From the NCBI GenBank assembly GCA_044892525.1, contig CM097888.1, positions 81,840,001 through 81,904,000 of the forward strand: a stretch of 64,000 nucleotides of DNA, written 5' to 3'. A program made the translations under genes and the position numbers. Positions 27,101 to 64,000 of the stretch are shown here, piece after piece. Position 1 is the first letter of the stretch. The number at the start of each line of letters is the position of its first letter. The notes under the pieces were generated by a model. It ran no database searches, was not told the DNA's origin, and saw nothing but the letters and a program-made list of their open reading frames with translations. This DNA comes from Schmidtea polychroa. Lineage: Eukaryota.

Positions 27101-30100
27101 TGTGGATGGACACCCGAAGCAATTAGTAAAAGGATGCCGTTGTTTTTGTGCGATAGTGCATTAGAGGTATATTTAGAAGCTAAAGAGAGAGACACGAAAT
27201 TAGAAAAGTGGGAAGATATTAAAACATTCCTGAAGAAAACCTTCGGAGCCAGTAAGCCAATCAACCAGGCGTTGGGCGAACTAGCAAATAGGAAACAAAG
27301 AGCAAACGAATCGATAACATTATATGCCAGTGAATTGCGGAGATTAGCGAAGAAAGCAATGAATGGAAAATTACCCGAAGAAAATCTGATCGGTTATTTC
27401 ATAGAGGGATTACGCCGAGAAGAAGTAAGAGCCTCAGTAGGTTGTCAAATGTGCAAAACATTAGAGGAAGCCATAGATTGGGCTACAAGATGCGAGCTCC
27501 ACCTTCCAGCTCAAATGAATATTATGCAAGAGGAGGGAAGGATAGCGACAGCAATAGCGAAAGCGGATAACGGAGATAACAACAATCAAGAACCGAAAAT
27601 GAATCAATTTATACCAGGAGCGCACCAAATTTTCAAACCACCACAAGGACGATCAAACGGGAATAATGGTAATCGTAACAACCCGAATAATGAGAACAAT
27701 TTCAATAATCGGCGAAATATGAACGATAACAAGCAGTGCCGAACATGCGGTAAACCAGGACACTGGGACAGAGATTGTTATAGAAATTCAACTTGTAATC
27801 GTTGCGGACGGCGTGGACATACCGAAAATGTATGCCAATTGCGAGGCTGTTTTAACTGTGGTCAGCCAGGTCACATCTCCAGAGATTGCCGAGAAAGGGG
27901 CCAACAACAACGACCACCACAGCGAAATAATAATTATATAGCGAATCCGCAACGACAAAGTAACCCTAACGAAGGAAAACAAATGAACGTTATGCAGGAA
28001 ATTTCGCAGATGAAACAGATGATGCAACAAATGATGAGACCAAGACAAGAATCAGCACCACAACAAACCCAGAATATACGTATGATGAGGAGTACCGAAA
28101 ATCTCAACAATTATGAAGTGCATCAACATGTACAAGAATGGCAAAGGTTACAGGCCGAGGAAGAGAGGATAAAACAAGAACGCAACCAACAACGACAAGA
28201 ACAACCATTGCGAATAAATATGATGAAGTTAGTAAAAGACATGAAGAGCCAGTATTGCTACAATTACGGGAAAAGCCCAAGGGTAGTACCCATGACTGAA
28301 CCAGAAAAGGTAAAAGAAATAACAACGGAAATGAAAACAGAGAATTCAACCACGATTTTAAAAGGAAACCAGAGAATTCAGAAAATATTCTGGAAAAAGA
28401 TGAAGGATAAAATCGAAAAAGAACATAATAAAGCGAAAACCGAGACAGAAGATGAAAATAACAAGAGCAAGGAACAAACCAGTCAACTAAACCACCAAAT
28501 GCTACAAGAATCAGAATCAGAAGAAACAACAATATTCGAAAGAAAGAAACTAAAGAGAGTACCAAGGATGAGAAACTTGCAAATCAATATGATGAAAAGG
28601 ACAAAAGATGTAGCATCGTCAGACGAAGAAGAAGATTATGTAAGTAGTTTGGGTGGAGAAATACTACAGCCGAATGAAATAAGCGAACCCCCAAAAGGGG
28701 AAATCAAAGAGGAAGAAAGCGGAAACGAGATAACCAGTGAAAGTGAAGACGAAGATATCGAAATAAAGTTGAGAAAAGCAAGGGAGGAAGCGATAAAACA
28801 GGTAGTCGAAATACTCCCAGTAGTAGTGAGGAACCAGGAGTTCATCGACGTAATACCATTCAGGCGATTCGTACAAAAAGTGATGAAATTGGAAAGAAAC
28901 GAGAAAGATCTAATACCAAACGAGGAAAAATCAATTATAAAAAATTATATGGAAAAAATGAAGCAGGCCGATACCACGCGGTATGTAATAAAAATTGGAA
29001 CGAGTAGAGGACTTGAAAGAATGTGGATAAAAAATACAGTCACCGACGAACTTTTCGATTGGATACGAGAACATTTGGGAAGTTCGAGAAAGAAAGAATA
29101 TCTGTATCAATACCAAGGAGAACAGATCAAACCAGATATGCACTTAGTAGATGCACTAATATGGCCAGGAGAAACGCAAATACTGAAGTTGCATAAAGAA
29201 AAACAACCAGCCAACCTTTACGATTGGGCTAAAGATGCCAAGGCAGAATATGATTTTAATATCAAATTGAAATTAGAACAAATAAAACAATGTACTCTGA
29301 GACGAAACCTGGATAAGCTGATCAAACAAATTCAAGAACAAGTAGAAGACAACTGGGATTTACTCATCACCAGACGAGCCCCAGCCATGTACGAACTAAT
29401 GAGCCGGTTGCGAGATACAGAAATGCTCCGAATGAGTGATTGGAGAACCATAAATTTGATCCACAAATATGGAAGGTTAAAAGAAACCCAGCCACAGAGG
29501 TTGGAAATAACCATATGGTTACCGAACGAAGAAAAACGACGAATAAAAATGAGCAATCAGAGTACAGTGGACGACTTGGTATCAAAAATAAACCAAGAGA
29601 TAACGGAAAAGGTACGTAGCGAAAGTAGTGATGGTATGGTGGATGATGTAGTCATGATGTACGATAAGATAATATTACGAGCGGAGGACGACACCTCGCT
29701 AAGCGAAATGGGTATGTGGGACAATCATCAGATAATCAGGATAGTACCAATGGATGAATTCCGAACAAGAGATGTAACATATCAAAAAGAAATACGAGAC
29801 CGGATGAAAACGTTATATCAAAAATCTACAGAAATAATTGAAATCCACCAACAATGGTTAAAAGAAAAAGAGCTACAAGGAAAAATCACGAAATTAAATA
29901 CCAGATCCTGCAGACGAACCCCATGGGAAAGAGTGTGGAATGCAGAAAGTAAGGAATGGGAAATCCGGAAAGGAATCTTCGTAGAAACAGACATCGGTGA
30001 GACAGAAAGTGAATCGGAGGAAGAAGAAGAGGAACCCCCAGAATATGAAGAGGAAGCAAGGGGACAGACATCAGATGACGAAAGCGAGACGGATGTCACA

Positions 30101-33100
30101 TCAGAAAGCGAAAATGAAGCGAGACATATTCATGCAATGAGGAAAAAGGAACGTGAATATGCTGATATGGACGGCGAAGAAGCGACGGAAGCAAGAGAAC
30201 GAGAAGAGACAGAAAGGTATAAACAATTAGGCGATATCTTAGCAATGGGAGCGAAAAATCAAAAACGCCAGGTAGTAGCGTTGGCTAATATCATCTTAAA
30301 AACATCAGAGAATATCCACAATCTGAGAGGAATGGCAAAGGCAATAGAGGAATACCGGCAATATAATGAATGGTATCCAGAACAGCTAGAACAAATTATT
30401 CGAAAATGGAGAAATCAGGAATGGGCACAAGACACCCAGGAGAGGTATCACATCCGAATCAAGTATCCGGACAAGAGCATCGAGGAACTAGAGGTGCATC
30501 CAACAACAAAAATTAGAGAATTAAAAAAGAAATTAGCATATGAAACTCCATTCCATCTGCAACTGTTCGGAAAATCACTAGACGATAATGCAGACGTCGG
30601 GATAACACCCATGAGATTGGAAGAGACAAATGTATTAACAATGGCGGAAACGTTGGGGAAACCGTTAAAAAGGAAAAGTAAAATTATTAAACCAACAAAA
30701 GGCAGTTTGAGTACTCCAAGTCCGAACAAAGCACCAAATAAATCTAATGAAACTGAAGAAGTTGAAGAGATAATCCTGGAAGATAGTGACGATGAACCAG
30801 GAGAAAGATCACCGCTATTAGTGAGATGGCCGACAGGAGCCGAAATGTGGACTAATAACCAGCCATCAACGAGTTATCAACAACCAACGAAACTGAACAT
30901 CAAAGAAATCATCGACAATACTACGGAAACCGAAACGGATGAACAATTCCAGAAGCAAAGAGAACCAACGAAAGTAACACCAGAAAGTCAAACCGACAAA
31001 ATAATAGACGAATGGAATGAGTGGCTAAGAAATAACGATAGCTCATTACCCAGAACGGATAACGAAAGAAATCCGAATTACGAAAATACCAGAGAAGCCG
31101 GAACGATGATGGAAAAACGGGCAAAAGGAAGACCTAAGAAACAAGGAGAAAAGTCTGAGTTCAAAACCAAAGAACAATTAAAGCAAGAACAAGGGCAAGT
31201 TCGATTAGAAAAATTGGATAAAATAGTATGGGATCTAAAGGAAGCCCAACCAACGATCGAAAGAGGAGAAAAATGGATACGAGAATTGTTAAAAGATATG
31301 TTAATAATAACAAACCCACAACTTAGACGTTTGTGGCAACGGAAAGTAGCCAGTACGGAAGCTAGACAATTATGGCACACCATTTCGGGGATAATCCCAA
31401 AGTTAATCAAAGAGAAAACGAAAACCACCAAAACGGATTGGGACGAAACAAAGAGAGTGATTGAGCAGCTCACGACAAATGCAAATGATGACGAACATCA
31501 CCTAGTGGTAATCACGTATTTAATGTATAATTTGATGGGACTAGCGGCGAGGAAAATACCAAATAAACAGTTTGCAAATCATGTGGAAATGACCGTTTCA
31601 ATCATAGAGAATACTATTGAACCACATATTATTCGTGCAGGAGGATGGAAAAGACTGATACAAGCGCCACGGAAAAATGAGCAAGAAAGGTCGATGCAAG
31701 TTAGATTGAAAAAATTATTAAATGAACTAGAATGGGAACTACCGATGAAAGATCCCGCAAGCAGAAAAGCATCAATAAATTCGTTAATGATGACTATGAT
31801 GATATGGATGTTGTGCACAAGTGGAGCAACAGGTTTCACCATCTACGATTGTGATAATATGATAATGAGAGATAAATACTCATTGAGAGACATAGAAGAA
31901 TGCAGACAAGCCTCACCCAACAAATTGGACATCGTGAGAACAAAAGTTACTTACCATGTATATCAAGAATCAGATTTCATCAGAACGCAAGCAAGGGAAT
32001 GCGTAGTATCAAAAAAGGTACTCGCATATTACTGTGGACAATATTCGTATTCGACTCTTATACTACCCGGTCTGGATAAAGAAATCGTATCAATACAACG
32101 AGAGGATTGTAAAGAGCTATTTAGAACCGGAGCGCTAAAAATGCATAACGGAGTGACAATTCACGGACAAACTGGAATGATTAAAACCGAAAGTGTTTAC
32201 GTATCCGGAAAAGTAAAATCATCAGATGGGTCATGTAACGGGGGGACGTATACGATCCGAGGCGAGGTAATATCGGGAGTTGTAGTGATCGAGTCTTACA
32301 CGGTCGAATTAAAAGAATACGAAGCGCAATTTGACGCAAATAATTACCAAATGAAGACCAACCCAGCGTGTAAAGCTACAGAAAACGTATGCAGGACAGG
32401 AGTATCAACTATAATCTATGAGGCTAATACCCAAAAATGCCGACTCCAACTGTTAAAAAGTGCTTTGTTCAATGAAGTAAAAGGAGAAATATATGAGAAC
32501 GAGAACGACGAGGATGGAAACGACAGAGTGAGAATGCGAAATGGAAAACCAATGCCACCATCTCCCAGAGAAAAGAGACTTTCAACGCAGAAGACACCAA
32601 CAGCATTAATCACAGACGACCCAGATCTAGGTATGAGATTTATCAAAGAGAAAGAAACCACCAAATGTGACAGTATAGTATATAAAACCAATTACGCAGG
32701 TATCTATATGTCGAGACAAATAATCGATAGAGCAGTGGGAAAGATAGCAACGGAGGACGTAAAACTATACTTATATGCAAATAATAAAATGGATTTTCTA
32801 TTTCATCGCGGACAAACGACCTTGCAAAAAGTATATTACGATCTGATACAAAACGATTGTTCATTGAATAAAGAAATATTGAAAACAAAGCTAGCTATTG
32901 CGATAACGCACCCCGATAACACGATGCCATCACTCCCATTACCAGATGGACACTTTGGTAGAATGGTAGGAGAAGTGATGTACACATACCAGTGTACCAA
33001 GACGTATGCACGAATGCCAGAAAAATCCATACTACCCGAAAAGAGATGTGCAAATGAATTAGAAATCCGTTACAAAGGACAAAATCGATTCGTCCAACCA

Positions 33101-36100
33101 GTCACTAGAATTATGAATCCAGTGGGTTTCTACCCAAATCTCTTTAACTGTTCTAATGCATACGGACCTTTATATGAAAGGCCCGATGGGAAATGGATGA
33201 TGTTACCGGGAAAAACCATATCCGAGGAGCCCAAGAAATTTGGATTAATAGAACTCGCCACAGAGCTGGATTTCAAACCTATAGACGTGTCAAACGGTGG
33301 TATGTATTCCCCAGAAGATCTAGAAACAGCACGACTTAACGTACTCTTTCCAGCCAGACGAGAATCCATTTTGTCAAATATGGTTACAATAACGGGGGGA
33401 ACAAATTATCAATCAGGCCCGAATTACGAGCTGCTATTATCGCCAGACCATTTTCAACAGGCTACGTCAAACATGATGAAAGCAATGTGGGGAAGATTCT
33501 TAGTTTTTGGACAAATGATGGCCGGGATATTAGGGATCATACTCATAATTCAGATAGTCAGAGTAATACTAACACAAATGTTAGCTTGTTTTGATATATA
33601 CAAGCGAGAAAAGAAAGTAAATTGGAAAATGATAGTAGGCTTTTTACCATTTTTAGCTAAAACCATGGTATTACATGGTCACTCAAAAGACATTCATCGG
33701 ATAAAGCGATTGATTAAAATATTAACAAAGATTAAAGGAACCGACGAAGAAGTAGGCAGACGATTCCGGAAAGTAATGTACGATGAAGCAACAAGACGAC
33801 AATTGAAAAAGAATAAGCCAAAATTCTTGGACCGATTTAGAAGCCAATCATCTAACAGCGATAGTGACGACGATGATAACGGGAACGATAAATGTCTTTA
33901 TCCGAACAGAAACCCAAACGAAAAACCAATGGAAACGGCACCATATTGGGAAAAGGAAAAGACAAACACCTGGATCGCCAATGGAAGCTATATACCACCG
34001 GATATCGTGGGACCACAAGCAGCTTTGACCATGACACAAAATATGTATCCGCAATTACCGAGTCAACCCGGTATGCATTATATGCCAACACGACGTACCA
34101 AAAGTGTAGATCAAGCAGATGACGTAAGAACAATCGCAGCAATGAGTCTACCTGGAGGTCCAGCAGTGACAGTCATGATTCAAATCAATGGTAAAGAAAC
34201 CAATGCTATGATAGACACAGGAGCTAATGTATCAGCGATAGCGATTAATCAAATTCCCAGTAAACACTGGAAAGATATCGAATCAACAACAATTCACATC
34301 ATAGCATGTAGTAAAGAAACAGTGGACGTGGTCGGAAGATGGTGGACTACATTGAGATACCAGGACAACGAAATTGAAACGTATTTGGCAGTAATACCAG
34401 AACTTAGCGTACCATGCATAATCGGAACGGATTTGATGCCAGAATTGTTAAAAGAAGTCGTAATTGACTTAACAACCATGTGTTTAAAAGACAAAACCGG
34501 TAGAATATGCAAAATGAATGCAGTCATCAGATGTCCAGAAAAAATAATAGTACCAGCAAAATCGCAGATGATTTGTCAGATAAAAGTGGATACGGGTATG
34601 GAAGGAGAAGTTATCTTTGAACCAAGCAAGTCATTCGAAAAGCGACGAGAATTACCACTCGCAAGAGAAATAATCACAATAAACCAAGAAGGAGTGATAC
34701 CGCTCAACATCACGAATTTCGAAGAGGAAGACAAAATCATTTATGAGAACGAAAAATTGGGAAGATTGACCCCAATGATGGACATAGAATTACCGAAAGT
34801 GACCAACGAGATGATCAAAGATGATGAATTATGGACAATAGATAGTATGTTGTTGACGAATGATGAAAAGAAAAAATTACACCGATTGTTGGTAGAATAT
34901 AAAGATATATTCGCCATCTCAGACTTAGATTTGGGTACATGCGATGTTACCCTACATGCAATACCCCTCATAGATGAAATTCCAATTGCATTAAGACCAT
35001 ACAAGCTAGCAGAAATGCAAAAAGAAATAGCCGAAGCAGAAGTACAAAAGATGCTGGACGCAAAAGTAATCGAACCAAGTTGCTCACCTTGGCAATTCCC
35101 AGTGGTCATGGTGAAAAAGAAAGATGGCACCCAACGATTCTGTATCGATTATCGGAAGTTAAACGCAGTGACCAAGAGAGATACCTATCCATTGCCGGAC
35201 ATCAATGAGATGTTATTGATGTTGCAAGGGGCAGCATATTTTACTTCTTTAGATCTAAAAAGTGGATACTGGCAGATTAAAGTCAAAGATGAGGACAAAG
35301 AGAAAACAGCTTTCACGTTGGGACGAGATCTATATCAATTCAGGAAAATGCCATTTGGACTGACCAACGCACCAGCATCATTTCAACGGTGTATGAACTT
35401 TGTCACCCATGGAATCAAACAATGTATGGTATATATTGATGATTTACTAATCTATTCAGCGACATTTGAACAACATCTGGAAGATATCCGAAACGTATTT
35501 ATTAGATTAAGACAGTGGAAACTCAAACTCAAACCATCAAAATGCGATTGGGCAAAGGAAAAAGTCACGTTTTTAGGACACATAGTGTCAGCTAAAGGAA
35601 AGGAGCCAGATCCAAGAAACATTGAGAAAATAAAAACATGTCCAGCACCGAAAACTGTCACCCAAGTTCAGGAATTTCTAGGATTATGCGGATACTATCG
35701 CAAATTTATCAAAAATTATGCAGGAATTGCAAAACCAATCCAGGAATTAGTAAAGAAGGACATTTCGTTCATTTGGGGGAAGGAACAACAAGAGGCGTTC
35801 GAAACGCTGAGAGATAAACTAATCGAAGCACCTATCCTCGTACACCCAGATTTTAAGAAGCCATTTCTATTGGCAACGGATGCAAGCGGGTACGCGGCAG
35901 GCGCGATTCTGGGACAATTAGATGATGAAGGAAAAGAGAGAGTAATCGGGTATTACAGTCGAACATTCAAAAAGCACGAAAAGAACTATTCGGTAACAGA
36001 ACGAGAAGCATTGGCTATAATACAAGCTATCAAACACTTCCGATATTTACTATGGGGACATGAGATATGCATAACCACAGATCATCAACCATTAGTGTGG

Positions 36101-39100
36101 TTAGGGCAACATAAAGAAGCGTCCAGTAGACTGATGAGATGGGCCATGCAATTGCAAGAATACTCCCCATTTATAAAATTCAAAGCGGGAAGAGCAAATG
36201 CCAACGCCGATTGTATGTCAAGATTTATTTTCCCAGATTTGGTGGATTCAGAAATGCAACGCATATGCTTAATAGTAGCGGAAGATTTGGATTTCTGTCA
36301 ATTACGAAAGGACCAACAAGAGGACGCGGAATTAAAACAAATTATCGATTATGTAAAAACCGGAAAGACAGAGGTATATGCGAAAGACCAAAAATTAAAA
36401 GAACATATGGATAAACACCGACACCGATATATTATAGAGAAAGATTGGTTGCTGATAATGGATGGGGAAAAACGATTAATGTGTATACCGGGAAACCGAC
36501 GAAAAGAGTTACTAACGCAATATCACGACGGGAGATTGGGAGGACATATGTCATCGAAAAAGACGTTAGCAAGAATGAAACAGAAATATTTTTGGCCTAC
36601 GTTAACTGAAGATGTAACCGAATGGGTAAAAAAATTGTCTAACTTGTGCAACCAGGAAGAATACTGGATCGAAATGGAAAGCACCTTTAACACCAATGCC
36701 AGTACCAATAGAACCAATGACGATGATATCCATGGACGTAGTTGGTCCACTACCAGAGTCAGATAAAGGAAACGTTTACATTCTAGTGATCACAGACTTT
36801 CTTACGAAATTCCCAGAAGCATTCGCGATGCCAGACCAAAAAGCTAAAACAATCGCAAAAATTTTGGTAGAAGAGATATGTTGCCGATATGGAACACCAA
36901 AACAAATCTTAACCGATCAGGGAACTAATTTTATGAGTGAGATAATGAGCGAAGTAACAAATTACTTCAAAATAGCAAAACTAAGAACCTCTCCATACCA
37001 CCCTCAAACCAATGGGATGACGGAAAGATTTAATGGAACACTTATACAAATGTTATCAAACTACGTTGACCGTCACCAACGAGATTGGGACGAATATATA
37101 AACCTATGCCTTATGGCATACAGAATGTCGATTCACGCATCAACGAAAATGAGCCCATTCAAATTAATGTACGGAAGAGAATGTAATATGCCAATGGACC
37201 TAGAATACCAACCACCGATATCACAGTATATGGAGATCGATGATTATGTTACGAAATTCAAGGAAAGAATGCAAGAAATTTGGGAAACTGCGGGATTAAA
37301 TATCAAGTTCTACCAGGAAAGTTATAAAGATTTACACGATCGAAAGAAAAACGTGAAGCAACATACGTTCCAAACAGGTGATTGGGTAATGATAGAAACC
37401 CCGGAATTAATTCCAGGAACCACAAAAAAGTTACAACGCAACGGAAAAGGACCATATGAGATCTTATTCGTAGGCGAAACTAATGTAAGAGTGAAATTGG
37501 TAAATAACCCCTTTACCAGACCAATATACGTAAACGTGGCACGATGCAAATCAATTCCAAAAACAGCCACCAGTCAACCAGAAGGCCGTACATTAACCAC
37601 ACGTTCGCAAACCTACCGAATGAACATGATGCAACAACTCGCAGAACCGATCACCGGACGATTGGGTATCCAACCATCAGAAGCGGAAAAAATTGTAAAA
37701 GAGGTAAAAATTAAAATACCTGGATGGGCAGAAGATCGATTAGATTTCGAAATATTAGGAGGATTATTGACGATGATCGAGAACTATGCAAATAGAGAAA
37801 GGACACACCCATTATTGCGAGTAGTCCAAAGCCAATGGCCAATATTATTTACAATAACAGATCATTACGGAGACACACCATTACACAAACTCATGAAAGT
37901 AGGTAACAACGAGCAAATACTAGAAACAATAGAAGCATTTCACGACTGCAAGCGATCAACAGAACAAACAAACAACCAAGGTTACACACCATTAATGATA
38001 GCCGCAAACAGAGGTAAAACAAAGGACATTATAACCGCATTACTCGATACCGGATCGAAAATAACTACACAAGACCACGAGCGGAAAAACGCTCTACATC
38101 ATGCTATCGAAGGGAGAAGTACCGAGGCGTTCACGTCATTGATGGAACTACTATCATATGAGGACAATCGGGAAGTCGGAAACATGTATGATGGATTGTT
38201 AACAGCGATCAAAGAAAAACTGACGACAATTACCGGAATATTAATTACATGGAGAAATCCAATTCGAAACGATTATATGATCAACGTAAACGAAGCGTTC
38301 ACGAGAGGAGAGAACACGCTGATGAGAGAAGCTATGAAAGGACATCATTTATTCGAAATCCCGAATCAATTACTAGAACGAGGGATAAAATTCACAAATC
38401 ATAAAGACGAACAGTTAGCAAAAAAGCGAATCGACACATTCGAAAAATCCCTATTCCAATTTACTAACCAAGTACGAAATAAATATTGGGAAACGGTAAG
38501 TGTGTTATATATGATGGACACGATGAATAACATCCGCGAGAATTACCTGGATATTATCCAAATACTTACAGCAGAGGAACGAATCAATAATCCAAACGGA
38601 AAGAAAACGAAAATAAGGTATGAGAAATCCAGGGAATCAAAGTCAACAACGAACCAAACGGTCACAAACAACGTCATCAAAACCAAATCAATGAGTACAG
38701 ATCAAGAGGCAATAATACGCAAAGCAAAAGAAGTGTTCTTTGAGGAAATGCTAGAGCTGCCAGACGAAATAATATTATCCAAAATCATAAAAGCCGTACA
38801 CACATACGCAAGAGATCAAACCACGGGTTTAGATATCGGGAAAATCAAAACCTTCTTGCCTCGAGCATTTACGATGGTAACGAAGGATTCCAGAACACCC
38901 CTACAACAAGCAATACTAGCAGCGAAAGAAAATAGAGCAATAACGATCGTGAGAATCCTTGGAGAGATGGGCGAGGAAACCAACACGAAAAATGAACAAG
39001 GTGAAACCGCCATGATGTATGCAGCTATAACGAAAATACACCCAAAAACACTCCACATCCTACATCAATCAGGATCGAAACTAGACGAAAAGTCCAATGA

Positions 39101-42100
39101 AGGAAATTCCACCTTGGACTGGGCAACCATACAGCCAAACTTAGAAATGATCAGATTTATTTGCAAAAATGCGACAAAAGAAGAAGTTGAAAATATGTGC
39201 AAAAACACATCTCAGTTTCAATGGAATACGGTACGGAAAAATCTAGAAGCAATGAAATTATTATTAACCTGGAGAGTACCACAAAATAATAAATATGCGA
39301 TAAACGTAAACGAATTCTACGAAAACGGAGAAAATGCGATGGTAAAGGATACCCTAACTAAGGGGGGGACGCCTAAAATTATTTTAATAGTATTAAATAG
39401 AGAAGACCTAAAATTCACGCAAAATCAGAACGAGCAACAACGAATTGGGAAACATCGTCGTATGCAATTGAGAGAGTTAGTTAAAGAATGGAATAGAAAG
39501 AGACATGCTGCAACGGGTAGAAAAGAGTTTGAATTCGAAGCAAAATTAGCAAGAAACAGAGTGCTAACAGCATATCGCAGATTATTGAACGATATAAATG
39601 TCGAGGACGACATTTTAAATGACAGCGGGGGAGATAAATACGATGACAATGATGGAAAAGGCCGGAAAGAGGATAAAGGGAAAAGAGAACCGGAAGAGGA
39701 TAAACCGGAAAACAAGGATTTGGATACGAAAAGAGAGGGAAACAGGCCGGGAACCAAGACCAAAGAGGAGGAAAAATCGAATAATGGAAAACAGAGGGTA
39801 TGCCTACCTTTCACTAACAAAGAAATAGAGACAAATATGATATTAATGATAATTATGCTTACCATGATAGAGTTAGTAACAGCTCAGGGAGGGACGAGAA
39901 CGATAAAAGAAACCAAAGAAGCGGAGAATCAAGATAGCAAAGAGGATGAACTAAAGCAAGAAAAGAAAAAGCAAACACAAGAGCAGCAGTGGGATTTAAA
40001 GGAAGAATGGGACTTAAAGGAAAGGTGCATACTAGGAAGATGCATGTCTAGAGCGTATCAGAAACTAGTACTGATAAATGAGGACACAGAACCAATAACA
40101 GAAGTAAGAATACAAGAAGCATACCGAAATCGAGACGGGAAGAGAATAACGAACGTCAAAGGAAAAGAGGTACACCTAGGAAAAGGTGGTGAAGTAGTAA
40201 TAACGCAGCTCCAACCAAGAAAAGAGCACAAAGTCTGTATTTCAAGATTAGGACCGGGTGAGAGATGCCATCAATATGTGACGCAGCAGCAGCCCCCGAA
40301 GGAATATACGGTTTGTATCTGGAGGAACGAATCAAAAAGAGAATGCCGACGATACCCGGGGAAAAGAGGAAAGAAAAGGAAAAACCACGACGAAAAGGAC
40401 GAAGGAGGAAAGCACAAGAAAACCGGCGAGGAAGCTCAGGACAACTATGTTTCGGAGGAAGAGATGGAAAAAATACAAAAGATGGCAAAGGAGGGTATGA
40501 ACGAGGAAATAGCAAGAATACGGGAAATGATGAAAGGAAATGGCAAAAGAGGAAACGAGAAAGGTACAGGAGCAATATCAACATTAACAAACAAGGAAAA
40601 ACCAGAGAGTATAAGCGTGAAGCAGATGATGTGGATCAGTGGGATAATAATAACAGGGGCATTCCTAATCATAACGGGGGGAACAATAAAAATAATTAAG
40701 GATAAACGACATCGCGGAGAACTAGAAATGACTCGAATCAGAAATTTCCAACATCGAGTGAAACGACCAAGTGATATCAAACAAGAACAGTGGGTGGAGG
40801 CCTGGAACGCTCAGCGCCCCCCAAACTCACGTATATAGAAAGGAATATGACTGTATATAATTGTAAAAAGTAAGTATATCTTATGTATATAACAGTACTA
40901 TATCTTTATATAAGCGCGGTATCAATATTATACAATAACGGGAATCATAAAATAAAATTAAATTTACATAAGAGTTGAAAAGTGTATATAAATTAGGAAT
41001 GGATCAAGGAAATAACGAAATGAACCACAATACCGTAACTGAAGAATTATGGAAGCAACAATGTGCCGTATTAGCACAATTAGTGTCCAATTTGCAAGAA
41101 CAAGGACTAACGATGCACAGAAACCTGATCGAGAGTATGAACAGAGGATTTAGTTATTTGAAGATAATTGAAGACCAGAGGTTAAAAATCGAACAAATGC
41201 AAAGAGAGATAGAGAGGATAACCCAATATAGCCGTCGACAGGAAATTGAAATAGACAGAATGATGGAGGAAGCAGAACAGACAGAAATAGAAGACTGGTC
41301 GGAATGGCTAATGAATAGAGAGGAGAGCGGACACGAAGCCGACTCTTCCGAACCCTAAACTAAACCTAGCTTAAAATGTAAACAATTGTAAATAAAATAT
41401 CGAACCTGTATCGATAAGAACTATTTGTACATATAATTATAGAATGGATAAACGACAAAGAGAAGAGTTCAGAGAGATTGTCGAGCAAGTCCGAAAATCT
41501 ACAACGATCAGAATACACAAACATGTTATGTGCGGAATATGTGAAAAGTTGTTAAAGGAACCTCACCAAACGCAATGTGGATGCAGAGTATGTAAAGAAT
41601 GTATCAGTGAAGCAATAAAAAATAGACCACAGAGGTGCCCGGTGTGTAAAGAGACACTAATATCGAGTTTAGAAGACACTAACGAGGATAAAGCCGCAGT
41701 GAAAGACATGTTAAACACCAACCTGGGATGCAAAAATGCCCCATGCGAATGGAAAGGAGTAATATGGAAGGTAGTACAACATATGGGAGAATGTATGTAC
41801 AGAATTGGCCAGTGTGAAAGGTGCCATAAAACCATTCGAGCAAGCGAAGAAAAAGAGCATCAAAGGCAGTGTGAAGAGAGATTGGAAAGATGTGAACACT
41901 GTGGAGAAATAGATACGTGGAAAAATCTCACCCTCAAACATCACAATGTCCAAGAGGAGAGAGTATGTGCAGAGTTCAGTGGGGAATGCCCAAACGGATG
42001 TAACCAAGGGGAAATAATGAAGGTGGCACAGCATCTAAGGGAATGCGAAAAGAAAAGAATGACATGTGTACTAGGTAGATGGGGTTGTCAGAAACTACTA

Positions 42101-45100
42101 CACCGAGGTGAGTTACCACATCATTTAGTAGGAAATGCTTCAACTCACGCAGAAATGTGGTCGACTGCGTTACAAGAAAGCGAAGAGAAAGTAAAACAAA
42201 TGGAGATAGAGATAACATCGTTGAAAGTGTTAGTCAAAGAACTACTAGAAGAAAGGAAAGCGTTCGAGGAAGCCCGAGCAAACATAAAGATGCAAATAAA
42301 CCGAACAGAAATCAGTAATAATCAGGCCAAGGAGCTACATCAGAAAATACGAGAAATAAATCTAAATGAGATAACCCCAACAGCACCCTACATATGGAAA
42401 ATAACGGGAGTAAAAGAAAGAATACGAAAAGCAAAAACCGGAGAAGAGACAAGAATAACAAGTCCTACATTCCATTCTTGGAAAAATGGGTACAAAATGA
42501 AAATGAAGATATATCCCAACGGGGACGGAACCGGATTAGATACGCACTTTTCGATTTTCTTTCTGTTATGTAAAGGAGAATACGACGAAATATTAGAATG
42601 GCCGTTCCAGGCAAAAATCGATATTACGCTGATGAACAACCGAAGTATACATGAGCAAAGCTTCAAAACAACGGGGAATCAAATAGCTTACCAGAGGCCC
42701 CTCAACGAAGAAGGATCAGCAACAGGAGCACCTACGTTCATCTCACAACAAAGAGTAGAAGATATGGCGAGAAATGATACCATATATATCAAGATGACCG
42801 TGAGGAAAGAGGAGAAGGGTAGAACGGAGTAACCAATCGAATAATGTTGTATATAATAATCTGTATATATCGGTGTATATAACCAATAAAATATTATATA
42901 ATAATAGTATGAAAACCCTAAATACGAAAACCCAAAAATGATGCGAAAATTTCCCAAGAAACAGTAAATAATGAATAAATTCCTTTTTCATAATAAAAAG
43001 ATTAATCGATGTCTATGATTTAGAGATGACACAAGAGAAAATAACCGAAATTGCGATAGACCCAACCAATGTCAACAAGACACAAATTCCCCGAGAACAT
43101 AACAAAAAATGGAACAAAGTAATGTTCCAACTAACTAATCTCACCCGAAATCACATCGAAGAAACTAGAGAAGATGAGAATAGTCAATACCAATGGTTAA
43201 TACACAACTTAAGAGCGGAAGCAGAAGCATGCAAAAGAGCATCAAAATGGGCGTCACTAGAAAATACCCGCCAAGAAGCACACAGCCACTACTTAAAGCA
43301 GCTAGTGCAGGAAGCGAGAAAGAGACTTACCGATGAGAACACCAAGCGCGAAGCGGAAAAACGAATAGAAGACAGGAAAATGATGCACTTAGTGGCAGAA
43401 GCGAGAAAATGGAAAAGACAAAACAGAGAAATGAAAAAAGAGATGAAAGAATTGCCCATGAGACTCGGATATGAAAGCGAACAAGGTAAATGGGAAGAGA
43501 ATTTAATAATAAAGGAAGAATTGAAAAGGTTGAGAAAGGTCGCCGCCCGAAGCCAAACCTGGCAAACAAAGGCTATGGAATTTGAGCGACATTTGGCATT
43601 AAAATGCGACATAAGAGAGCACGAGAATGCCGCAATGGAAGAAATGATAACCCAACAAGCAGGACGGATTGTGGAATTGGTAAATCAGGTCGGAGAGATG
43701 AAAAGAGACCTTAATGGATTACAAGGATCGTTAGAACAAAGAAACATGGTCCTAGCGGGAAAAAACAGAAAATTAGAAAACGAGAGGAAAATGTATACCG
43801 AAAATATCAAAAACTTGGAAATAGAAATTGAAAAATGGAAGGGCGACGAGAAAATCAAGGCCCTAGACAAACAGATAGAGGCGAAAGATGAAGAGACAAG
43901 GTATCTCACCTATCTGCTCGACGAGGAATTGAATATCACTCGAGCTCTAAGAGACGAAGTTAGTGAATTGAGAGCTCAAATTCCCCAATATTACCTACCA
44001 TACGACCCTATTGCGATACAGTTACATTCCGCGGTCGATAGTGATGAAGGTTATGTAGGCCAGGAGGAAACCTTCGTATGAGGGTGGATGAAAAGATGAA
44101 AAACTAAAAACCGGGACGTATATCCCAAACAAAAAAAAAAAAAATTTAAAGTATTGTAAAAGTATTCAAGGGACTGTAACCCAAACTATTAAATTTTATA
44201 TCAATGTATACGTATAAGTCGCACTATAGCGCACCATTAACTGTACATATTATAGATATGAAAATCGAGGAAATGATAGAAATTATGAGCGACATAGAAG
44301 AGGGAGAGATTGAGGCAGAAACAACAGAAACACAAACGCTAAAGGCCGAGTTACGGGAAGAGAAATACGAAAACGGGAGATTAATAAACAAATACCTGGA
44401 GGACCGGAAAATGATAAAGGTGTTAAAGAAAGAGTGCGAAGCGTTGGGGGAAATAAAAAGAGAAACGGAAGAGGAAAATGAATGGCTACACGAACAAAGG
44501 AAGCGAGGGAAAAACTGGGAAAAGATAGCGGAAGAACTATGGAAAGAGAGGGCAAGCTTCAAAGCAAAGGAGGTAATCCAAGACTACTGGAAAACTGAGG
44601 CGAAGGAGCGCCAAACAGCTATAAATAAATTAAAACGACAACTAGAAGAAAACCAACGGGAAAGTAAAGAAATGAGGAAGTGGGTCCGCAAATATAGAGA
44701 AATAGAAAGAAAACATCAACAACAAAATTACCTGCAAGAAAACGAACAAGATCTCCTACAAATCGAGCTAAAAAGAAACCTTGAAAAGAAAAGGGAAGAA
44801 ATTAGACGCTTGGAAAAGGAAATTAGACATCTAAAGAGAGAAGCCCGTGAAAAAGACCGACAATTGGAAATGCTGCCCGAGTTAAGACACAGGGTAATTA
44901 ACGCAGAGTCCACCTTGATGAGAATCGGCGAAAATAATCCAAATCAGAACCATTAAATTAAGGGTCATTAAAACCAATTGTAAATAAACATAATGAATGT
45001 ATAATAGTATCATGCGAGGCGAGATGATGATAACAATGATGGTATTGATGATTCTGATGGAGAGCAAACAGATAGACGCCCAACCGAAAATCGTACGAGA

Positions 45101-48100
45101 TTACCGAAATCAAAATCAAGAACCTAAACAAGAATCCAGTCAATGCACATACCCGATGACCGTAAAAACCCATATCATCCAAACCATTCAATCAACCCGA
45201 TCACACATCAACAACATCCAAACAATGTGTAAAAAGAATCCCATTTGTAAAATGATAAACAAACAAATCCTCGAACAAATTCAACAATTCGACCAGTTGG
45301 AACAACAAATGCAACAAGAGAATTTTGGAAATCTGGTAGAAAAGCCAAAAATACCTCCCGAAATCAATGACACCCATTATCTCATATATGTGGTGATCGC
45401 AGAGACCCTCCTCCTATGTCTACCAATATTCATGAAGATTTACGAAATTCGAAATAGATGTAGAGTCTCGACATCAATAAGAGTAACCTCGAACCAAAAT
45501 CCTCAAGAAGTGCCCCTGACAAATCTTAACCCAACCCCATTCCGACCTCGAACCCCGAGTAATCAACCAATCCAGCCGAAATCTAATAGTCAGACCTATC
45601 TCAACATCAATACCCAAACCAACCAACAGCCGCCAGCAGAAGCATCAATGGTTAACAGTTCATAGACTCTAATTCAAACATTTGTGTTATTATATGTGGA
45701 AACTTTTATTGTACGTACAAACTATCACCTTAAGTGATACTTGCTTGGTCTTGCTTTGACCTTGATCTTACAATAAAATTTTTATCATTGTTGTATAATT
45801 TTCGTGTTCGTGTTATATTTTTTTTTGAATGAATGAATTAAGTTAATTATGCAATTGCGGGACGCAATTTTGATGGGTCCCCGAGTGATTTGTTGGGCTG
45901 AGTCGAAAATTTAATCGTTGAAAAATAAGAAAGTAGGGAAGTAGAACATTAAGAAAAATAATAATAAAATAAATAAAATCAGAAATAAAATAGAATAAGA
46001 TATAAGGAAAATAATAATTAAGACATAAGAATTAAAACAAAAAATAAAATTAAGAAAAGATTAAAATAGAACAAGTTGACAAATAAATAAAGAGGAATTC
46101 AAGAAATAAAAAGGAAATTAAGGAAATAAATAGAAAAACATATTAAAAATAAAGAAAATAAGGAAAAAACAACCTAAAAACAAGAAAATTATATTAAATT
46201 AATAGAAATAAGCGGTACTCAACTCTGATTGGTCCGCACAAATAAGAATTTGATATATATACAACTACCAAAAACATTAAATTTACTATTAACCCCGAGC
46301 ATTTCATAGGTAAGAAAAATGTTTACTGGTTTTACTATTAACCCCGAGCATTTCATAGACATCTACAACTCACGGAGACTTAATTCAAGGATCAGCAATA
46401 CTAGTAGAGCAACAGTTAATTCGGAAAACTTCACAGCAATTCGAAATCAGTCACAGCAATCGACATTCGACGAACCATCATCAGACTAATTTGGAACGAC
46501 TAACGTTAATTTTCCGATTCAGCCTAATTCCATAGTAAGGGATTTTTATTTATGATATTGTTTTTCGAAGTTAATAGTAAATATGTATATTTGATGAGCA
46601 ATTAAACTTTTAAATTTAAACAGACTCTCTTTTCATTTGATCCCGAATAACGATTTTGATAAAGTAAATAGTTTAAATGTTTAAAAGTATTTATTGGTAA
46701 CAGGTGAACTCTTACATAATTTTTATGGATATTTATTTTGAAGTGATAGTTTTATGATTTCTAATATTAACGAGAAACGTGGCGTTGAGATACTCCATGT
46801 CATGGTGTGAGGTGCCTTCGGGAGCTCAGCCGGTGGACATGGAGTATTTCAATCACGCAGCTAGATTGGGCCGAAATGTGAAGGCTTCTTCACGGGTCCA
46901 ATTGCTGAAGGACTTAAAATCTGTCAGAGTACCGAAATATAGACCGAAAGGAAACCTTCTGAAATTTTCGAAAATAGGATATGTGCTTCACAGCGACTGA
47001 GGGAGTTCTCATATTAACTCTGTATTGTCCAGAGTCGTCTTACAAGACATTCATGCCACTTCTGTCTATAAACCCGAACTTACCATGTGGGGGAAAATAC
47101 CATTAAACATCCATCGCTGGTCTTCTAACATATCGAGAAGTCGAAATTGCATTCGGTAGATTTTTGAAAAAGTAAATCTAATTTAGGTCATCTCTTTCAG
47201 ATGCGACATCCAAATCTTAGCATATGATGAGGAATTTACAATAAAGGAAAAGTAAAACATAAAACCACAATAATACTGTATTCAATCACATATATTAACA
47301 AAATCTGGTAATACCATTGAATAATTTTCATGCTGTTGCGTCGAAATATCCACTACTGAAATATGCTTCATAGAGTCTAGTTGGCTGGTTCGTAGAGATC
47401 TTCCATCGTTCAAAAACATCCAATATTGAGGAAATTACTAGTCGTAGTAAATAAATCCAACATCATAAGCTCAGATGGGAATCGACACGCGATGTAACAT
47501 TTGTAGTTCGCTCAGTAAGGTTGATAGTTACAGATAAAATTTCCATCGAATAGGCACCCATACATACAGACATACTGCTAACATAACTATGAGTAGCGTC
47601 ATCCGGTCAGAAATATGCATGAGAAACAGCAGAATCATTCCGAATGCCTCTCACCGCAGGGAATGCCGCCATGTGTCACCCTCTCTAGGATTCTTAGTGT
47701 GTGAGTAGTAATCAGTGGTCATATTAGATAATGCTGACATGAGATGTGACTTCCAGATGACTGACTCTTAAATTTCACTACTGATAAAGGTCATTCGTAC
47801 CACTAAAAAGATAAGCCAAAATAACCAGTAACCGACTACTAGGATAAGAGACTCTCTAAAGTGCACTCATTAAAGATAATTTTGCTTAAATTAAATATTC
47901 TAAATAAAAATCGAAATTGTTGAAGGGGTATTTTAATTAATAACCGAAAATTCAAACCAAACTTTATAACTCAACCATAGGAAGTTTTACCTAAGTGTTG
48001 TAGAGGTTTATCGTAATTCTAATTAGATGTTACAAATAATAGTAGTAGCCTTCGAGCCAAACTTAAATTAACTAAAGCATCTACAGGAATTTTTGGGTTA

Positions 48101-51100
48101 TAAAATAGCTAGTAATATTGTATTTAAATTTCTCATATTCCATGTAGATTACGTATTGTAATAGAAAACTAAATCCGATAACAAATTATTATGTAATTAC
48201 AATATTTTTACGATGCTATATTTCTACGACGATATCACCGTATGGTATGGATAAGGGGTAATCATAAAATAGTGACGCATAGTTTATACGAAATTACGAG
48301 TTGTTACTTATTCCGCTACTTGAGGTAAGGGTGCAAGTTTTTACTAGTTGCATTTGGTCCAAAAACCTTATTTTGCATTAGAATAACAACAAATAATCAG
48401 CGAAATTTAAACGAAGTGTAGTATAGTGTATTTGCAATGAAATAGGTTTATTCACTCCGGCATGAACAAATCCGTAAATTGCCTTTATGTGCGATAGATA
48501 GAAATCCAACTCGAACGCGATAGACGAAAATTTAAATTTTTACAAATAATTTGCATTCGTCAGGGAAGCAATCAGGGCGTTGAGGAATAATTTTGTAAAG
48601 GATACGTAAAATATTAGTAATCAAGGGTGAAGGGAGGGATCCTGTTTCATCGACTCGTCTTGTTTTCTTCCAGCACTAAGTATCCAATAGCGAATAAACC
48701 GTATATCTGATCCGAAATTTTTAGATATAGTCATCATAGTTTTCTTCTTTAGCCATCCATTATGTTATCAAACAACAACTCAGCTCTACGTCCCTGCTTC
48801 TCCTGCTCAGATAAAAATGCAGTGATTAAAGATCTTCAAGCCCAGATCGGTCGATATAAACGACAAATCGACGAGCTGGAAGGGACATGGTTTAGTCCCG
48901 CTCGGATGAAGGAGATCCAAAAGAAGCTCGATCGTAGCGAGCATTGCCGGGACGCGCTAATATCTGAGAGCCGTGCCCAAAGAAGTCTAATCAGAGAACA
49001 ATCCGAGGCACTGCATAAGGTTTACGTGCAGGCGGCTACAACCCGAAAAATTGTGCAGATTCCCATCCGAGAGGCCGATGACATCTTTCCGCCTCATCAC
49101 AACCTTTCCTCGAATCCATCTCCACCGTTCAAGAGACCGTGCCGAGACTGCGTCGAAACCGAATTGTCTCCCCAGCGACCAGATGTTGTCATCACGGGTA
49201 CCAGTAAGCCCCCCACTGCTAGTCCATCCGTATCAGTCACCCTTCCGCAAGTGGCATCTTCAAGCAAACCCAAGCGAAAACAACTTTCTCGTGCAGAGCG
49301 CAAGAAGAGACAGCGCGAGCGCGCTACTACAAAGCCAAACATCCCATCAATAGAGGACTCAACTAACGATGGCAACTCTCACGTGTCCCTCGACCTAACA
49401 ACGGGACCCTCGGCACGAATCATATCAGCCGCTGGTGTAACGTGGGAAGAGAACGCTTCCGAGTTCTTTAACCTCGACGAATTATTCGCCGACGCTGAAT
49501 GGGAGAAACAATAAAACCCCAGTGGCGGTCAGGATGAGGAACAAGGATCCGATCTATGTTGATTATGGTGTTTTCTCTTCTTTCGACAAACATTAGTAAA
49601 GTGTACAGTTGAATCCTTATGTTATAACGTTGAAATTAATAAATCTTGTTGTCTTACACGTTTTCGTTCATGAATAATTATACTTTAATTAAGTGGGTGG
49701 GGTAGAGAACCCGCAAGATCTAGTGAGAAATTCCCAATTTGCATTCAGCGAATCCCGATAAGCGGTTGTGTAAGGAAATGGACGTAAGCCCTTCTATCGG
49801 CAGTCGTGAATGGGAAGTCGAGGCCTCAGCAAGGAGTAGTTTTAAGGCAGAAGCTCACCTGCTTGCTGGCGTCTCGCCTGCATAGTGCAGTACCAACGTG
49901 AAGTGATTCACGGGCACTATGTTGGAAGAAAGTTATGTGGGGTTTCACTCCAGGTTGACAAATCGGTGGCACCTTTTATTCGAGATGGACAATCAACCCT
50001 TAGACCCGTCAACATGGTAGAGTGGTCAGCCGAGGTGTAACCCCAACAATAATAATAAAGAATAGCAAGATTTCTGCCGTTTTAATAAGTGGGTACAAAT
50101 ATTCAAAAAATTCTGTAATTTACTTAAAGTTAAAACGCTGTTTTTTAGCCATGGAAAACTATGTTTTTGAGGAAAAATCAGCTGATGAAAATTCCGTATG
50201 GTTCTATTTTCTTCGTGAGAAAAGGGACAAATATCAAAATGTAAGAAGTGTAACAAAGTAATAAAGACGCAAGGAGGTAGTACAAGTGGTTTGCATACCC
50301 ACCTAAAGACACTCCACCAAATTAATTTAAAAAAAAGGAATGCTCCGAGCTCCAACCTTCTGATTGAAATTGAGCCAGAACTATCAACTTCTAAAGTGAA
50401 CAAAGTTTCTAGCGGGAAAATAACAACATTTTTCGTTTCGGAAACGGACAATTCTTTGTCTGCAGTTTTAGCTCGTATGACGGCATGTGACGGTTTGTCG
50501 TTTAACATATTTTGCACTTCCGTGGATATCAGAAAAGGTTTAACTGCCAGAGGGTATGAAAATATACCAAAATCTATAAACTCTATAAAACATTTAGTTG
50601 TGCAGTACAGTGAAAAAATTGGTGCAAATATGATTAAAGAGTTAGAATCTCAAATTCTTTCGGGACAACGATTTAGTCTTACATTTGATGAATGGACATC
50701 GGTAAAAAACCGACGTTATTTAAATATAAATGTTCATGCTGGCATCAAGAAATTCTGGAACCTAGGATTAGTTCGCGTGCAAGGATCATTGCCTGCAGAA
50801 AAGTGTGTTGCCCTCGTTGAAGAAAGGCTTAAATTATTCCAAGTTTCTTTAAATAAACACATTGTGTGCATTACAACCGATGGTGCATCTGTCATGACCA
50901 AAGTTGGAAAGTTGATTTGTGCAAGAAAACAACTTTGCTTAGTTCACGGAATTCAATTGGCTGTCATTAAGGTTTTATATATAAATATGATACACTAAAA
51001 TTTAGAAAATGAACATTCTAATTGTAACGAAGATGATAACCAGTATACAAGTGATGAAAATGATAGTGATCTTGATGATAATAGTTTATCCATACTTCAA

Positions 51101-63705: not shown

Positions 63706-64000
63706 TGCTGGGGTAGTGCTTGGTTGACTCTGCTCGATCTACGTCCTTGTCTAGGGGATGCGTGTCCATATCAGTACGCTACATACGCCCGTGTCAACCC
63801 GGAGCAGGACCCCGCACAACCTGCCCTCCAACATAGCACCCGCGAATTGCTTCACGTTGGAAATGTGCTATGCCGGCGAGACTCCAGTAAGCAGGTGAGC
63901 CCCTACCTTAGGACTACTCCTTACTGAGGCCTCGACTTCCCTTTCTGACGGCCGATGGAAGGACTTACGTCTGTTTACCTCATCAGATTCTCTCTCTACC
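63706..64000 (-). mobile_element. 3' (U5) end of an LTR from a related Gypsy family, continuing beyond the window
   Basis: Reverse complement aligns to 23785-23965 at roughly 80% (hand alignment) and terminates CCCCAGCA versus CCCCAACA; no PBS follows, so it is a 3' or solo LTR. Confidence 0.85.

Follow-up and report, generated by a model that had tools for sequence, protein, structure and literature searches.

A full-length TRAF gene under purifying selection in a Burro-type LTR element of Schmidtea polychroa

We analysed a 64,000-nucleotide stretch of the genome of Schmidtea polychroa (positions 81,840,001 to 81,904,000 of contig CM097888.1, assembly GCA_044892525.1), here called the window; positions without a prefix are counted from its first letter. 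An uninterrupted frame of 462 amino acids, taken from the list of open reading frames (ORFs) of the window, begins with the ATG at 41444 and closes with a stop codon ending at 42832. It encodes a protein of the TRAF2/3/5-type architecture, with a RING finger, tandem zinc fingers, a coiled coil and a C-terminal MATH domain. This TRAF is an accessory gene of a Burro-type gag-env-pol long terminal repeat (LTR) element of 30,153 bp that spans 19896-50048.

The TRAF gene and the element around it

The TRAF gene and its predicted expression signals comprise the following features:

41440..41442, + strand: YAG (Y, pyrimidine) just ahead of the ATG in all 92 loci scored; predicted splice acceptor (sequence; function inferred)
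41444..42832, + strand: full-length TRAF ORF, 462 amino acids (ORF list, Pfam, PDB sequence matches, AlphaFold2, Foldseek)
41531..41647, + strand: RING finger of the C4C4 type, amino acids 30-68 (Pfam; 8/8 ligands in 80/80 open copies)
41729..42148, + strand: five TRAF-type zinc-finger clusters, amino acids 96-235 (PDB match, alignment, ligand conservation)
42137..42370, + strand: predicted coiled-coil helix, amino acids 232-309 (AlphaFold2 model)
42389..42802, + strand: MATH/TRAF-C domain, amino acids 316-453 (Pfam, PDB, Foldseek)
42848..42890, + strand: three TGTA and an AATAAA 3' of the stop; predicted polyadenylation signal (sequence; function inferred)

An earlier note, made from the letters of the window alone, had described a complete RING-zinc finger-coiled coil-MATH TRAF in a single frame at this place, and Pfam, PDB, AlphaFold2 and Foldseek agree with it. 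Pfam calls the MATH domain at amino acids 316-453 (PF21355, E 3.6e-27, 95.6 bits with a cut-off of 27.4; PF22486, E 4.9e-27). The RING barely passes (PF00097, 22.2 bits, cut-off 21) and has a Cys in place of the usual RING His, which makes it C4C4. The zinc fingers of the window TRAF are not called by Pfam (PF02176), which does call them in host homologues and in those of a sister element family (family C, see below); the five Cys/His clusters line up with the called fingers of host TRAFs. Sequence matches in PDB include the TRAF domains of TRAF2, 1, 3, 5, 4 and 6 as well as RING-finger chains of TRAF6 and TRAF5, which are matched by amino acids 28-154 (5vo0, E 1.7e-14). AlphaFold2, given a 73-row alignment, returned a RING, fingers, a 78-residue helix and a beta sandwich at a mean predicted local distance difference test (pLDDT) score of 93.4, with block values of 88-98 for the helix that precedes the MATH domain; this is an alignment-based model, and single-sequence folding reached a pLDDT of only 40.6. 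The best Foldseek matches are TRAF domains of TRAF3, TRAF2 and TRAF1 (E 1e-18 to 1e-17, best 1.4e-18), and the list of TRAF domains continues down to 1e-12.

The remaining features of the element are these:

19896..24053, + strand: 5' LTR, 4,158 bp, TG...CA, ATAA in front (sequence self-comparison)
22767..23519, + strand, second copy at 48762-49514: 250-amino-acid ORF within the LTR, without a Pfam family (ORF list, Pfam)
24061..24078, + strand: primer-binding-site-like stretch, shared with family C (sequence)
24393..24878, + strand: 161-amino-acid ORF with a C-terminal C3HC4_3 RING; homologue in family C (Pfam, comparison)
26984..36766, + strand: polyprotein part 1, with gag, zinc knuckles, env-like fusion glycoprotein, protease, reverse transcriptase, RNase H and the start of integrase (Pfam)
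36696..40838, + strand: polyprotein part 2, in another frame, with integrase core and ankyrin repeats (Pfam)
40999..41358, + strand: 119-amino-acid accessory ORF; a homologue also precedes the TRAF of family C (ORF list, comparison)
43026..44081, + strand: 351-amino-acid accessory ORF; homologue in family C; no Pfam family above cut-off (ORF list, Pfam)
44204..44956, + strand: 250-amino-acid accessory ORF; no Pfam family above cut-off (ORF list, Pfam)
44997..45665, + strand: 222-amino-acid accessory ORF; no Pfam family (ORF list, Pfam)
45891..50048, + strand: 3' LTR, same as the 5' LTR; ATAA after it, a 4-bp target-site duplication (sequence self-comparison)

Thus, the element has what defines the Burro type: a length of ~30 kb, paired LTRs, a target-site duplication and a gag-env-pol polyprotein with ankyrin repeats. 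The two LTRs are identical at all bases, and ATAA flanks the element on each side. In Pfam terms the polyprotein reads gag, CCHC, PF24664, RVP, RVT_1, RNase H, integrase and Ank, with one frame break in this copy, and five short ORFs follow pol, of which the TRAF is the second. The break in the integrase region (36630-36770) is private to the window copy, since 35 of 35 other aligned copies lack it; despite the identical LTRs, it may be a private lesion or an assembly error.

The primer-binding-site-like stretch may resemble tRNA-Pro; no tRNA genes were found in the window. Three 74-bp tandem repeats (25485-25706) lie in the leader that separates the RING ORF from the polyprotein. An inverted 81% match to the LTR end lies at 63792-63971, a further copy of the family stands on the opposite strand just past the window (G000:C4:81910720), and frames judged by eye to be transposase-like lie outside the element at 50477-52147 and 13292-13762.

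Copies, selection and expression signals

The TRAF recurs in copies of the element. In a protein search, 92 of 1,920 candidates were scored; all 92 are full length at 95-100%, and 91 are free of stops. A pattern for the TRAF start, allowing up to two mismatches, has 279 matches in the genome, one for the polyprotein end has 320, and controls have 0. Since these patterns catch 58 and 63, respectively, of 65 fetched loci, most element copies carry the TRAF. The earlier note would have given up its idea of capture had the TRAF been missing from other copies of the family. Instead, element DNA flanks the TRAF in all 69 loci checked (29 best-scoring, 18 found by pattern only and 22 lowest-scoring), and there are ~279 TRAF starts to 320 polyprotein ends.

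When a host TRAF served as the query, further subfamilies came up, whose TRAFs are 89-90, 86 and 69% identical in protein and whose gene order is unchanged. Some subfamilies are mosaics, in which the polyprotein end and the TRAF differ in identity (99% vs 89%, 75% vs 86% and 86% vs 69%; loci L145-L170, with L156-L158 covered in part); this suggests module exchange through recombination. Family C, of which two copies were read, encodes a 4,688-amino-acid polyprotein with an in-frame MATH domain and, separately, a full TRAF of 474 amino acids, so that the polyprotein MATH is the second in the element. The family C TRAF is 29% identical to the window TRAF and occupies the same place, after the homologue of the 119-amino-acid ORF; a 22-mer from it has 233 exact matches in the genome. 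Directly 3' of it lies a BIR-RING inhibitor of apoptosis (IAP) gene, for example at G000:C1:21552042-21554782 (L079:2042-4782). Smaller env-bearing relatives, with a pol ~40% identical and LTR pairs 99.6-100% identical, lack an element TRAF in 5/5 stretches, so the TRAF was likely gained within the lineage of giant elements. One family C copy contains a 13.9-kb block (G000:C4:59317023-59330908; L074-L076) with 337-bp inverted repeats, a double jelly-roll capsid-like ORF and an A32-like ATPase, which we take to be Polinton/Maverick-like.

The element TRAF is maintained under purifying selection, as the dN/dS (omega) check proposed in the earlier note brought out. A codon model over 64 distinct coding sequences estimated omega at 0.13 and rejected an omega of 1 by 584 log-likelihood (lnL) units (lnL -8933.7 vs -9517.9 with omega fixed at 1). 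Pairwise omega, computed without eight copies flagged with two indels and over pairs that are not independent, was 0.16 below 2% divergence, 0.15 at 2-8% and 0.10 above 8%; the 29 best-scoring copies pull the lowest class toward low omega, and the higher classes and the codon model are less affected. By domain, pairwise omega of the TRAF ranges from 0.09 to 0.25, compared with 0.01-0.03 for the integrase and 0.12-0.20 for the ankyrin part. Among 93 loci, 79 have the ungapped open frame of 462 amino acids, 7 have stops, 4 have in-frame gaps and 3 are partial. The RING ligands are intact in 80/80 open sequences and the finger ligands in 79-80 of the 80 (or 64/64 distinct ones), and the groove residues Y357, D361, G362, F373 and F407 are constant in 80/80.

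One could suppose that the TRAF is a neutral passenger that looks intact merely because the copies are young, as the identical LTRs of the window element and the many copies that are 98-99% alike might suggest. However, omega stays at 0.10-0.16 between subfamilies too, at synonymous divergences (dS) of 0.16-0.60. We therefore hold this explanation to be extremely unlikely, and count it as refuted by the pairwise omega and the codon model.

Signals around the accessory ORFs may point to separate expression. The YAG ahead of the TRAF is present in 92/92 loci with 8 distinct upstream strings, TAG-to-CAG changes included, compared with a background of 78/547 ATGs (14%). Two other accessory ORFs have a YAG 2 nt before the ATG (72/72) or a TAG 4 nt before it (32/32); for the 119-amino-acid ORF a YAG is found in only 34/92, with AAG in most others. 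Spacers between accessory ORFs measure 59-226 nt. We also observed that in both families an AG lies 0-4 nt ahead of the ATG of every accessory ORF, and that the stop is followed by TGTA, in most cases together with AATAAA (window 40838-45891; L079:1345-8457). Such an arrangement would be a repeated expression cassette, like those of complex retroviruses or trans-spliced operons. In sequencing contigs from six runs, whose RNA status is a guess, related sequence of ~85-99% was present; none of the matches listed showed a joint or a loose end at the predicted acceptor, which speaks neither for nor against splicing there.

Kinship with planarian TRAFs and the host expansion

A HMMER search of 1.8 billion proteins returned 6,136 relatives. 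The best are 27-32% identical, and those named (20 of 150 were looked up) include three Dendrocoelum TRAFs and Dugesia japonica TRAF2-like A; the nearest host TRAFs are 29-31% identical to the window TRAF. The four element TRAFs (families A and C) form one group (support 99/97) in a mixture-model tree of 36 rows; this group nests in one of 23 rows (95/96) together with host, Dendrocoelum and unnamed rows, and a 94-row FastTree agrees. The window TRAF thus falls with planarian-type TRAFs, away from the named fish TRAF2 rows (P0015/P0018), and by this placement is not an orthologue of the named vertebrate TRAF2 or TRAF3. The Cys-for-His RING is found in 7/7 element rows, 9/9 RING-bearing host rows and 15/78 database rows, about 10 of which sit in the same 23-row group. 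In base composition the element TRAF (GC 0.41, AT skew 0.39) matches its element, whereas host TRAFs have GC 0.29-0.35 and skew 0.09-0.18. Since the composition has shifted wholly to the element type, the capture is old, though the insertion in the window is young.

From these comparisons the host origin of the element TRAFs is well supported and a single capture is likely; the phylogeny of host versus element genes, which the earlier note had called for, brings the element TRAFs together as a single clade, within the planarian TRAF radiation or next to it. The claim that a host mRNA was captured stands as to the host gene, on the 95/96 group and the common CGC RING; passage through mRNA is a possibility. 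The note had drawn it from the lack of introns in a genome of genes with many mini-introns; there are short exon-like frames in the window flanks. LTR elements usually capture genes via RNA, and introns would be lost in such an element in any case. The mini-intron picture does not fit the nearest host TRAFs, however. Among the 30 best MATH loci, RING and MATH share a single frame in 6 and are spread over two in 17, the majority of which show GTAAG or GTAAA and CAG where expected; 7 could not be classed. Three further single-frame genes (L068 and L069) bring the total to 9. The product of one single-frame gene aligns gap-free with D. japonica TRAF2-like A at 71% identity. As these host TRAFs have no coding introns either, intronlessness is no evidence of capture through mRNA.

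Elements inflate the TRAF count in raw DNA, as the earlier note had supposed, with at least 279 plus at least 233 element loci, to which the in-frame MATH of family C adds, versus at least 56 host-like loci. The last figure is a lower bound among 150 rows, assigned by the length and position of their frames, with the context of 37 genes checked across 42 stretches. The element copies collapse to only about five sequence types, however, and the host has a tandem expansion of its own: clusters of short two-exon TRAFs (RING, few fingers, MATH; variable groove loops) on G000:C2 at ~1-5 Mb and 105-124 Mb. In the MATH tree this cluster is a clade of 15 rows (100/99) without element rows. The host TRAF expansion is thus real and separate from the elements. 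With so few element types, and with host clusters outside elements, the published planarian expansion of 99 transcripts and 121 domains (PMC6109357) is probably mostly real.

The elements might, conversely, have seeded this expansion, with host paralogues being domesticated element genes. Single-exon host TRAFs exist, LTR-like fragments at 66-82% identity occur in 7/42 host-like stretches, and an approximately unbiased (AU) test did not reject a tree that joins the elements to the tandem-cluster clade (p-AU 0.28). Yet Burro internal neighbours were found in 0/42 host-like stretches, host lineages have counterparts in Dendrocoelum and Dugesia, and host rows never nest within the element clade; moreover, cluster genes have an intron and single-exon host genes show host-type composition. 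We regard seeding as very unlikely. Host paralogues unrelated to retroelements, which the earlier note had listed as counting against its own reading, are found on G000:C2 as far as genomic context goes, with the AU test above as a reservation.

Possible roles and comparison with known systems

We consider it moderately probable that a Burro-type element captured a planarian TRAF once, keeps it, and expresses it to sustain cells or dampen immune signalling. The planarian TRAF radiation would have supplied a complete TRAF a single time in the distant past, the single capture being read from the tree, and purifying selection has kept it. It would be made from its own spliced (LTR leader or spliced leader) and polyadenylated mRNA and, by analogy with TRAF2/3, would act as a trimeric adaptor and E3 ubiquitin ligase. 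As a virus-style modulator it would let element-expressing cells survive or would blunt immune signalling. This direction of effect is proposed because of the IAP, RING and ankyrin cargo (family C has a BIR-RING IAP after its TRAF, and the window element has ankyrin and RING ORFs) and the published survival role of host TRAFs. Vertebrate TRAF2 and cIAP work as a complex. In planarians, cells depend on host TRAFs to survive (PMC7586133, PMC8807557) and TRAF knock-down increases cell death (PMC7586133), and upon loss of SMEDWI-2 BURRO1 is expressed in differentiated cells (PMC8532177).

Several observations weigh against this proposal. The BIR-IAP is absent from the window's own family. At the place of what we take to be the serine triad of the TRAF2 receptor groove, by a label and numbering that we presume, the window TRAF reads Q-I-A and copies vary, so that partners may differ. 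The 92 acceptor loci are related copies, not 92 independent events, and no transcript or protein of the element TRAF was seen. The element rows in the tree have long branches and odd composition, and AU tests of topology, which are weak here, rejected neither a host-only clade without elements (p-AU 0.39), which bears on the direct donor, nor a tree in which family A arose separately, next to TRAF2A-like host genes (p-AU 0.073). A characterised viral TRAF, ORF111L, promotes apoptosis (PMC3352826), and BURRO1 RNA interference (RNAi) gave no improvement of the smedwi-2 phenotype (PMC8532177).

There are at least two other possibilities for the role of the TRAF. It could activate stress or death pathways, raising LTR transcription or helping particles to exit, as iridovirus ORF111L binds TRADD and triggers caspase-8 apoptosis (PMC3352826). 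All domains are kept, the RING included, as in an active adaptor rather than a truncated decoy, and the element has an env-like gene. The other cargo, however, is of the anti-death type (the IAP of family C, and a BCL2-like motif reported in PMC6431247 that Pfam did not detect here), and host TRAFs favour survival (PMC7586133); we think this unlikely. Alternatively, the TRAF could serve the element cycle as an E3 or scaffold, aimed at an element protein or a host restriction factor and apart from receptor signalling. An identity of 29-31% with the closest host TRAFs, together with a groove loop that has changed and varies, leaves room for new partners, and the element has a second RING ORF; but related env-bearing families multiply without a TRAF, as their near-identical LTR pairs indicate, and most groove residues are kept, including those constant in all open copies. 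This second alternative we judge to be distinctly unlikely.

A wider version of the survival proposal would make Burro a complex retrovirus-like parasite with separately spliced and polyadenylated accessory genes, whose captured TRAF (with an IAP in family C) rebuilds the host TRAF-IAP death and immune checkpoint; the host TRAF expansion and the control of traf, ankyrin and E3 mRNAs by PIWI-interacting RNAs (piRNAs) would answer this cargo in an arms race. SMEDWI-3 piRNAs degrade mRNAs of these domain classes, which also occur in Burro cargo (PMC6824462). The traf identifiers in the available part of the table in PMC6824462 run in blocks, which would fit host clusters better than dispersed elements. 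We hold this wider picture to be quite unlikely. Direct cross-targeting of host TRAF mRNAs by element piRNAs is not supported: exact DNA matches of element TRAFs to 30 host-like loci reach 15 nt at most.

Full TRAFs under selection imply that these elements, like large DNA viruses, rely on the signalling machinery of the host, and they make it possible to test what cell-death domains are for in Burro elements. More than 500 element-borne TRAF loci can also confuse planarian TRAF counts, RNA-seq mapping and RNAi design. The significance of the planarian expansion has been called unresolved (PMC8807557); that the host expansion is real and separate narrows this question.

Among known systems, vertebrate TRAF2 and TRAF3 (PDB 1ca9, 1f3v, 8t5p) share the RING, five fingers and coiled coil and a TRAF-C fold like that of the element protein (target TM score 0.76-0.84), but in the element TRAF the RING His is a Cys, the presumed serine triad is lost and TRAF-C is 30-35% identical. 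ISKNV ORF111L is likewise a host-type TRAF in a virus-like parasite; unlike the element TRAF it comes from a large DNA virus of fish and is pro-apoptotic, and the two are likened by cargo type, not architecture (PMC3352826). Planarian TRAF2-like proteins (D. japonica ADF47429.1; Dendrocoelum TRAF-2/-4/-5; Smed-TRAF-2A/B, PMC7586133) have in common with the element TRAF the domain order, the CGC RING, a single coding frame and the 95/96 group, whereas the element TRAF is only 27-31% identical to them, has element-type composition and exists in hundreds of dispersed copies in LTR elements.

The giant gypsy-like Burro/GYPSM1 LTR retrotransposons of planarians (PMC6431247) have the same ~30 kb with LTRs, gag, an env-like fusion protein and protease, reverse transcriptase, RNase H and integrase in one polyprotein, ankyrin repeats, accessory ORFs, and MATH_TRAF_C, BIR and RING cargo; in D. 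tigrina, too, MATH_TRAF_C sits on an accessory ORF. The MATH_TRAF_C, BIR and ankyrin cargo and the idea of meddling with apoptosis and ubiquitination are thus in print, a point absent from the earlier note, in a review whose section on this cargo gives no selection, tree or copy count (PMC6431247). We found no account in the literature of a full-length downstream Burro TRAF, its selection or its tree, though Grohme 2018 may show the gene; the available parts of PMC11410931 and PMC13524379 do not mention TRAF. In the review, MATH_TRAF_C is part of ORF1, as in Burro1, or belongs to an accessory ORF that lies upstream (PMC6431247). By the published description, Burro1 has MATH_TRAF_C in ORF1 and a BIR gene; family C has both and the window element neither. 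In the window element the polyprotein has no MATH and a full TRAF lies downstream of pol, whereas family C has both forms. Our analysis thus extends the cargo known for Burro elements to a full-length TRAF downstream of pol that is under selection.

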